The notes: generated from the sequence alone by a model not told the origin. A stretch of 20,000 bases of DNA from Rozella allomycis CSF55 (GCA_000442015.1 KE560790.1:49650-69649); one strand, 5' to 3'. Positions 17,267 through 20,000 are shown, counted from the stretch's first letter. Numbers and translations are program-made.

Positions 17267-20000
17267 ATGGTTAGTGATGGAACACCACGCCTAACTTTGA
17301 GCAAGATGGTTCTCGTTAATTTTAAATCATATGCTGGCCGACAAACGATAGGGCCTTTTCACAAGGTATTTAATGATTTGTTTAGACAATCTAGTCGTTT
17401 AGTAGTATTGTAGGACCCAACGGGAGGTAAAATACGATGTGAAAATTTATAAAAGTGGAAAGAGCAACGTTATTGATGCGCTGTTGTTCGTTTTTGGGTT
17501 TCGCGCCAAAAAAATGAGGCAGGGAAAACTGAGTGATTTGATTCATAATTCAAAGGAATATCCGAATCTGGAGTATTGTGCTGTAGAAATATATTTTGAG
17601 GAGATTATTGATCTTGATAATGTAGGGAATAGTGCTGGATTTAAATAGGGGGAGTATAAAGTTGTTCCTGATACTGCCATGACTATAATTAGAACTGCGA
17701 ATAAGCAAAACAAGAGTACATATACGATTAATGGACAAAATTATTCCTTTAGCCAGGTATGAGAAAGTAGTGTTTTTGAATAGGTATTTTCTTTAGATGC
17801 TGAAGATTAGGTTATTAGTCTGTTGAAAGAAAAGGGAATAGATTTAGATCACAATAGATTTTTGATATTGCAAGGAGAAGTAGAGTCGATAGCATTAATG
17901 AAGCCTAAAGCACCGAATGAGCATGAAGATGGATTGTTGGAGTATTTAGAGGATATTATTGGGACTAGTGATTATAAGGGACAAATAGAGGAAGCGAATA
18001 AAATATCGGAAGAGTTGAATGCTGAAAAGGATGTGATGATTAATAGAATAAAGATAGCGCAAGATGAAAAGGATGCATTGCAAGTAAGACTGTGTGAATG
18101 AATGGATAGGATAAAAAGGAAGAAGCAGAGAATTATTTGAGGATGGAGAATGAAATTGCGAAAAAGCAGAATTTGTATTATCAAATAAAGATAGACAAAG
18201 TGGAGAGGGAATATGGTGAAGTGAAGGAAGAAATTGTAAGAAATTCTAAATGGAATGAATTATAGACTAGAGTGAAAGAGGAAATTGAGAAAGAGGAAAA
18301 GAGTCATTTGGGGCAGATTGAAGAGATCAAGGAGATGGAGAATAATTATGTGTTGAGTGAAAAAGAGTATCAAATATTGAAGGGGAGAGTGGAAGAGATG
18401 GGCAAGGAGATTGGCAAGATGGACAAGGAAGAGATCCAAATGCAGGAAAAGAAAAAGTATATAATGAATAAGCAAAAGAAGATTACAAAGAATATTCAGA
18501 GTGAGAAATCAGAGCTTGGATTGAAGATGGATAATGTGAAGAGTGTTGAAGAAGAAACGCAAAGCAATGACAAGGAGATTGAAGTGTTAAAAGAAAGGTT
18601 GATTAAGGAGGAGGAAGTGTTGGAAGAAATTAGAAATAGTTTGAGTGGTACAATGAATGAATTGATTTTAAGTAGGAAAGACTGATGTGTTTCAGGTTGA
18701 GTTGGAAAAGAAGCAAGTTGAGTTGTCACCTTGGACAGAAAAGATATTTAAAGTTGAATCTGAAATAAAGATATTGAACAGTGAAAAGGAGTTGTTGGAT
18801 GAGAAAATCAATTATCAAGAAAATGCAGAGAAAAAGATTAAAGAAGAAATAAAAAAGATTGAAAAAACAATTCAAGATAAAAGACCGGGGTATGAAGAGG
18901 GAAGAAAAGAATTTGAAGTTTTAAAGAGTTTGTCAAGGGAGGTTGAAGAGGAAATCAAAAAGATTGAAGAAAAAGAAGAAGAAAAGAAGGAGATTTTGTC
19001 TAATTTGAGTTTTAAGATTAATGAAAAGAAGAATGAGAGTATGAAGATGAATAATAGAAATTTGATAATGGAGAATATAATGAAGGAAAAGAATAGTGGA
19101 AGAATTAAAGGCATTCATGTAATAGAAATGATTGAAGTAGAGTAGGGGAGATTAGGAGATTTGGGGATGATAGAAGAAGAGTATGAGATAGCGATATGTA
19201 CAGTGTGTAGTAGATTGGATAACATTGTTGTTGATTCAACAGAGAGTGCCGAGAAATGTTTGGAGATTATTAAAAAGAGAAATTTGGGAAGAGCAACATT
19301 TATAGTTTTAGATAAATTGGATAAAATAAAAATGAAGAGTGAAAATTTACCCATGAATTCCAAGAGATTGTTTGATTTGATAAAACCAAAAGATGAAGTT
19401 TATTTAAAGGCATTTTATTTGGCTCTTGGAGAAACATTGGTTACAGATAATTTGAACAATGCGAATAAAATTGCATTTAATTCAGGAAAGAGATATAAAG
19501 TTGTAACGTTGGATGGAAAGATTATTGATTCATGTGGAACGTTGACTGGTGGTGGGAATAAAGTGATTAAAGGAAGAATTGAACTATTAAATAATTTGAA
19601 CAAACATGAATTCATCGATAAAGGTGAATTCAATAAAGGTGAACTATTGAATAAAAGTGAACTCAACAATCGAAATAAATTTAAACAAAATGGTGAATCT
19701 AGAAAAGAAGATTTAGAAAAAATGGAAAAAGATTTTCAAGATGAAATTAAAAATTTAGATGAAATAAAAAGAAATAAAATGGATTTGATAGTAAAGTTGA
19801 ATCAGCTAAATCAATTAATTTCAACAAATGAAGTAAAATTTAGAAAAATGGAAATGGAAATTTCTAGTTTAGAAAATGAATTGAATCAAAAAAATAAAAA
19901 TCTAAATGAAATAAAAAGATCATCAAATTCTCCAAATGTAAAAGATCTTGAAAGATTTAAAAAAATTAATTCTGAAATTTCCAAAAAAGATCTAGAAATT
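17267..20000 (+). CDS. SMC4: Condensin subunit SMC4, partial (runs off the 3' end of the window)
   Basis: NFKSYAG...IGPFHKSFSSIVGPNGSGKSNVIDALLFVFGFRAKKMRQGKLS, GIDLDHNRFLILQGEVESIALMKPK, coiled coil, and hinge GIHGRLGDLG...LGRATFI...VVTLDG...GTLTGGG. Introns at 17366-17394, 17427-17455, 17622-17648, 17757-17810, 18084-18109, 18236-18265, 18648-18675 and 19119-19145. Confidence 0.97.
17757..17810 (+). other. 54-nt intron made of two abutting 27-nt GTA...TAG units in SMC4
   Basis: CAG|gtatgagaaagtagtgtttttgaatag|gtattttctttagatgctgaagattag|GTT. Each half carries an in-frame stop. Confidence 0.8.

Follow-up and report, generated by a model that had tools for sequence, protein, structure and literature searches.

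Two abutting ultra-short intron units, with a putative zero-length exon between them, in the SMC4 gene of Rozella allomycis CSF55

The SMC4 gene of Rozella allomycis CSF55 is interrupted at positions 17757-17810 of a 20,000-nt stretch of genomic DNA (GCA_000442015.1, KE560790.1:49650-69649; below, the window, meaning the whole stretch that was analyzed) by a 54-nt sequence, which is the only intron length outlier in the window and splits exactly into 27 + 27 nt. Comparison with the surrounding introns and with SMC4 homologs gives good support for reading these 54 nt as two complete ultra-short intron units that abut directly, with a zero-length exon between them. We lean toward removal in two consecutive steps as the main route by which the spliceosome would excise them. 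The gene and the parts of it that bear on this interpretation are as follows.

17267-20000, plus strand: 5' part of SMC4, nine exons as modeled, continuing past the end of the window
17649-17756, plus strand: exon 4, ending at codon 135 in phase 0 directly before the composite intron, colinear with fungal SMC4
17757-17783, plus strand: candidate intron unit 1, 27 nt, GTAT...AATAG, with an in-frame TGA as its second codon
17781-17786, plus strand: TAG/GTA junction, a predicted 3' splice site directly abutting a predicted 5' splice site (zero-length exon)
17784-17810, plus strand: candidate intron unit 2, 27 nt, GTAT...ATTAG, with its terminal TAG in frame if retained
17811-18083, plus strand: exon 5, a conserved head-domain segment

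The SMC4 product contains an SMC hinge domain (E 1.9e-25), and its best matches are named structural maintenance of chromosomes 4. Removal of all 54 nt yields an SMC4 frame that stays open for 828 codons to the window end, with no in-frame TAA, TAG or TGA. Exon 5 matches 907 database proteins at E <=0.001, the best identity being 71% among the matches listed, and in its alignment 20 of 20 SMC4 fragments show no gap at the exon 4-exon 5 junction; those that extend upstream run straight through it. By tblastn, the spliced N-terminus is also colinear with 38 fungal SMC4 loci. The proposal in the initial annotation that removing both halves fits SMC4 is therefore borne out by the open frame and the gap-free fragments. 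On the 5' side, an extremely short intergenic spacer of 47 nt (17220-17266) separates the TAA of the upstream gene from the SMC4 ATG.

These alignments also bear on whether the 54 nt could be an assembly error or might not be intronic in the first place. Tiny introns are handled imperfectly in public Rozella models: the one for pelota (328 aa) splices out 29 nt at 1340-1368, reads through the 26-nt intron at 465-490 to a stop, and omits the last two exons, so that the public annotation seems to under-call introns of this kind. No protein identical to SMC4 exon 5 occurs among the matches listed. Against an artifact stand the stop at the second codon of the 54 nt and their position, where they interrupt a highly conserved and otherwise gap-free protein segment. 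A duplicated read is unlikely as their source because the two halves are not copies of one another (12 of 27 positions identical). Taken together, we consider an artifact very improbable.

On re-reading of the sequence, the initial annotation's placement of two 27-nt halves at 17757-17783 and 17784-17810, joined at TAG/GTA, was reproduced letter for letter. From the donor at 17757, AG dinucleotides end at 7, 11, 14, 27, 40, 49 and 54 nt. Among those at least 26 nt away, the reading frame is kept only by the acceptors at 27 and 54 nt, and splicing to the 27-nt acceptor keeps a stop in frame. If unit 1 is retained, the frame reads GTA TGA, and if unit 2 is retained, its own terminal TAG falls in phase 0; the earlier claim that either retained half creates an in-frame stop thus holds under the standard code. 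The GC content of both units is 0.30, inside the range of neighboring introns (0.15-0.38 across 41), and T-N-A-like motifs were recognized by eye 4-10 nt upstream of both unit acceptors, as in the neighbors. Each unit has GT and AG ends together with the size and composition typical of U2-type introns here, and the frame is restored only by the pair jointly. An AG and a GT are juxtaposed inside the intervening sequence, the arrangement by which recursive splicing sites are defined.

How unusual 54 nt is can be judged from the other introns of the window, which were placed by open reading frame bridging in nine gene models, with colinearity to homologs checked where possible. All 41 fall within 26-32 nt (26 nt, 12 introns; 27 nt, 8; 28 nt, 11; 29 nt, 7; and one each of 30, 31 and 32 nt), which confirms the 26-32 nt range given by the initial annotation and extends it to the full set. 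All 41 single introns start with GTA. A tally of 39 of them has GTAA at 29 starts and GTAT at six, and ends in TAG (23), AAG (11), CAG (2), GAG (1) or TTG (2); the two introns added later end in GAG and TAG. Each of the 39 introns that end in AG takes as its acceptor the first AG lying at least 26 nt from the donor, and five introns skip an AG at 24 or 25 nt. Measured from the donor at 17757, the first AG at least 26 nt away is at 17783, not 17810. Published information on Rozella intron lengths was limited, in the literature searched, to a passing remark on two S23 introns of about 30 nt in a paper on microsporidian introns (PMC6349667); coverage of subscription journals in that search was thin.

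Two introns of the 39-intron tally appear to end in TTG. The phosphoenolpyruvate carboxykinase (PEPCK) intron at 9611-9639 (minus strand; 29 nt, GTAA...TTG) has its next AG at 42 nt, which would shift the frame, and the flanking frames align to the Escherichia coli enzyme up to residue 403 and from residue 404, so that removal of 29 nt is needed. The RIO2 intron at 12118-12145 (minus strand; 28 nt, GTAA...TTG) has no further AG within about 100 nt, and colinearity with the human kinase requires removal of 28 nt. Both introns are of normal size, compatible with a strict length window, and their TG ends would be either genuine acceptors or incorrect bases in the assembly. If they are not base errors, the acceptor would be set by distance even where AG is lacking, which would make excision of 54 nt in one step unlikely.

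A leave-one-out splice-site profile gives unit 1 a score of 12.2, above that of 30 of the 39 neighboring introns. The chance of the arrangement depends on the question asked. The bare pattern GTA..AG/GTA..AG with units of 26-32 nt has one occurrence in the window, and 81 of 200 dinucleotide shuffles contain it one or more times; by itself, the bare tandem pattern is not rare. A conditional model required an intron of 54 nt, took interior first-order statistics from the 41 neighbors, and left both parts at 26-28 nt. Under this model the probability of a correctly placed internal NAG/GTA is about 0.0011, and that of TAG/GTA about 0.0003. A value near 0.001 argues for two intron units, rather than for one intron carrying a chance motif. 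The expected frequency of abutting introns is a separate matter: with 43 units in 17,053 exonic nt, or one per 397 nt, random neutral placement yields about 0.1 abutting pairs per such window by our own arithmetic. An abutting pair is therefore uncommon but not extraordinary, and further cases in the genome are predicted under random placement, at an estimated one pair per roughly 400 introns from the intron density.

If the 54 nt are removed in two steps, each unit would be recognized by intron definition, like other Rozella introns, and the two would be excised in consecutive reactions. Removal would have to be sequential, because the unit 1 acceptor and the unit 2 donor overlap physically and could not be engaged together, and either order would give the same mRNA. 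Were unit 1 removed first, exon 4 would be joined to the G of unit 2, and the donor GTATTT would then stand behind ...CAG; were unit 2 removed first, the unit 1 acceptor would come to lie in front of exon 5. Half-spliced RNA of either kind would carry an in-frame stop. We favor two-step removal on the basis of the tight length window (41 of 41 at 26-32 nt), the first-AG rule and the TG-ending introns. The initial annotation had attributed removal to a spliceosome limited to introns of about 27 nt and acting recursively. Of that proposal, the two complete units and the zero-length exon stand, and two-step removal is kept as the likelier mechanism; we infer both the use of the internal sites and the disfavor of one-step removal.

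Several observations weigh against two-step removal. The same splice-site profile gives unit 2 a score of only 4.4; three of 39 real introns fall below it, and of 726 GT..AG pseudo-introns taken from the window, 23% reach it. The first-AG rule is weakly tested because most introns sit at the minimum length, and about 1.7 chance violations were estimated over 37 interior positions. Exons hold 49 sense-strand decoys, GTA sites with an AG 26-32 nt downstream, versus 43 real units; length and dinucleotides therefore do not define introns, and other signals matter. Low GC is probably among them, as a GC content of 0.30 or less is found in 83% of the 41 real introns versus 22% of the decoys. A sample of 41 introns is also compatible with a few percent of longer introns, removed in one step, elsewhere in the genome. 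To our knowledge, no general upper length limit for spliceosomes has been described.

These points give some room to a single 54-nt intron. A spliceosome assembled on the donor at 17757 could use the branch site and acceptor of unit 2, so that the whole 54 nt would leave in one reaction and the internal TAG/GTA would be an ignored relic of two introns that were formerly separate or separately gained. The final mRNA would be identical, and the sequence does not forbid such a route. The internal donor scores low (5' score 3.15; three of 39 neighbors are lower), and an AG that precedes the branch site is normally disregarded. A hairpin predicted between the 5' portions of the two units would reduce the effective span and bring donor 17757 closer to the second half, but its folding energy (-7.9 kcal/mol, z -0.89) is no better than that of shuffled sequences, 39 of 200 of which do as well. 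Against one-step excision, none of the 41 neighboring introns exceeds 32 nt, and the spliceosome would have to bypass a unit 1 of above-average score with its acceptor at the usual place. We regard one-step excision as possible but doubtful, and two-step removal of the pair remains our preferred interpretation.

Two-step removal might reflect a wider rule, which we put forward tentatively. The Rozella spliceosome may act as a molecular ruler, in which a GTA donor would pair only with an acceptor 26-32 nt downstream, AG would be preferred but dispensable, and TG would be used where AG is lacking. Longer intervening sequences would then exist only as chains of minimal units, and abutting introns would form a genome-wide class. 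If this is true, a secondary peak of intron lengths at about 52-64 nt, with a central AG/GT, should be found.

The stops that appear on partial retention could also serve regulation, if inefficient removal of one half led to stop-containing, degraded SMC4 transcripts that tune condensin levels. Either half-retained form does carry an in-frame stop, and the signals of unit 2 are weak. An in-frame stop is, however, present in all ten introns of the window with lengths divisible by three (27 nt, eight introns; 30 nt, one; and the 54-nt composite), in five of which it is the terminal TAG in phase 0. The stops are thus a general property and no special device. The site also appears not to be conserved among the 38 fungal SMC4 loci, all of them distant, none of which breaks at codon 135. 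A regulatory role therefore seems unlikely.

Those 38 loci come from a metagenome scan and share at most 68% identity over most of the exon, with one at 82% over part of it; prokaryote genome contigs scanned for SMC4 loci gave none. As far as seen among these sequences, the composite-intron site appears to be lineage-specific. Alignment breaks in the fungal loci cluster at codons 33, about 97-101, and 156. The Rozella SMC4 introns at 17366-17394 and 17622-17648 lie after codons 33 and 99, and these two intron positions are probably old, to judge from the alignments. They match breaks in loci L001, L002, L018-L024 and L031. At codon 156, many fungi carry an intron that is missing from Rozella SMC4.

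Recent tandem duplication, either of an intron or of an exon piece containing AGGT, was considered as an origin of the pair and is not supported, as the halves resemble neither each other nor their flanks. The identity between unit 1 and unit 2 is below the mean for unrelated introns; of 28 pairs of unrelated 27-nt introns taken from the window, 24 match each other at least as well as the two halves do. In six local alignments of the halves with 200-nt flanks, 174-281 of 300 shuffles scored as well.

The window is compact, with approximately 85% of its 20,000 nt coding (17,053 exonic nt in models), and its GC content is about 0.33. Eleven genes were recognized; in addition to SMC4, these are as follows.

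256-1502, minus strand: pelota, with a 285-codon exon at 490-1344 that is 100% identical to a Rozella allomycis CSF55 protein
Ending in TAA just before the pelota ATG, same strand as pelota: first of two small membrane proteins
16736-17219, plus strand: second small membrane protein
7551-9059, minus strand: 503-codon orphan, an intron-free open reading frame
Minus strand, containing the 9611-9639 intron: ATP-type PEPCK
Minus strand, containing the 12118-12145 intron: RIO2
DUF1295-like protein, with the 3' end of the model unresolved
ABCC transporter, spliced model
ARP5-like protein, spliced model
Ubiquilin, spliced model

The second-best matches of the pelota exon are fungal pelota proteins at about 50% identity. 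The pelota model is open as far as it was followed; only 22 nt (1503-1524) separate its ATG from the TAA of the membrane-protein gene on the same strand. For the 503-codon orphan, no Pfam family and no convincing Atlas neighbor were found, and structure matches suggest a helical-repeat fold, all of them below the bar for naming a family. Upstream of the membrane-protein ATG at 16736 lie about 450 nt on the plus strand (16290-16735) without a modelable gene, which is unusually long for so compact a window. The sole frame named in that stretch (16360-16545) has 62 codons and no ATG. Scanning the window for Rfam families and tRNAs gave no matches.

The window is translated by the standard code, a conclusion supported by its reading frames. 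Under table 1, frames that are open from stop to stop reach 722 codons, and the ABCC, ARP5, ubiquilin, PEPCK and RIO2 models, as well as the membrane protein at 16736-17219, are open through to a terminal TAA with no internal stop. A ciliate origin or a variant genetic code, the first guess from the style of the introns, was rejected on these long standard-code frames and on the 100% identity of the pelota exon to a Rozella protein. Among the models followed to their end, eight of eight terminate in TAA (1525, 7535, 7548, 9118, 11289, 15048, 16275 and 17217), and in-frame TAG and TGA are absent from the spliced models.

The ultra-short length of introns such as these might result from a passive deletion bias or from an active limit of the splicing machinery. 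A pair of minimal introns that abut at a zero-length exon constitutes a natural experiment on these alternatives. If the pair leaves only in two steps, the splicing machinery would be bounded by a maximum intron length besides the minimum, and recursive splicing would not be confined to very long introns. Gene finders would produce mis-modeled Rozella genes if they took the 54 nt for a single odd intron, or overlooked introns of 26-32 nt or TG acceptors.

The best-known examples of recursive splicing at zero-length exons are very long introns of animals, in Drosophila and vertebrates. The SMC4 case is like these in that a 3' site directly abuts a 5' site, and in that piecewise removal leaves no trace in the mRNA. 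The known introns, however, span hundreds to hundreds of thousands of nucleotides and their internal sites are shown by RNA data to be used, whereas the SMC4 composite measures only 54 nt in total, has pieces that are each at the genome minimum, and is known from sequence alone. The initial annotation had tied recursive sites to very long introns, a framing that is incomplete given reports of zero-length exons in fission yeast and of consecutive splicing in other fungi. In Schizosaccharomyces pombe, a zero-length exon is described within an intron of SPNCRNA.445 that is 336 nt long (10.1101/226894). Spliceosomal twin introns (stwintrons) of fungi are excised by consecutive reactions, and in Lipomyces starkeyi alternative excision in one or two steps is documented (PMC7138796).

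Stwintrons, for example those of Lipomyces and the Hypoxylaceae, resemble the SMC4 composite in belonging to the fungal lineage and in comprising more than one U2-type unit. They differ in that the internal intron of a stwintron interrupts the donor, branch site or acceptor of the external one, which makes the order of excision obligatory, whereas the SMC4 units stand in tandem and either order would work. A stwintron was rejected as a description of the SMC4 sequence: its units are complete and non-overlapping, and shifting the boundary by one base gives no GT..AG alternative.

The ultra-short introns of ciliates are comparable in size. As far as the available portions of the reports on them extend (PMC5014332, PMC13685798), Paramecium and Nyctotherus (approximately 25 nt), and Stentor and Blepharisma, share with Rozella a narrow range of lengths, weak splice-site information, and in-frame stops in introns divisible by three. 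A text-term search of the accessible text of PMC5014332, PMC13644364 and PMC13685798 found neither tandem units nor recursive splicing mentioned. More widely, no report of tandem or recursive ultra-short introns was found in the literature searched, most subscription journals lying outside its coverage. The ciliates belong to a different lineage, while Rozella is a member of the Rozellomycota and uses the standard code. Zero-length exons are known already, as is the removal of complex introns by consecutive splicing, fungi included; their occurrence in ultra-short introns, as proposed here for Rozella SMC4, would be new.
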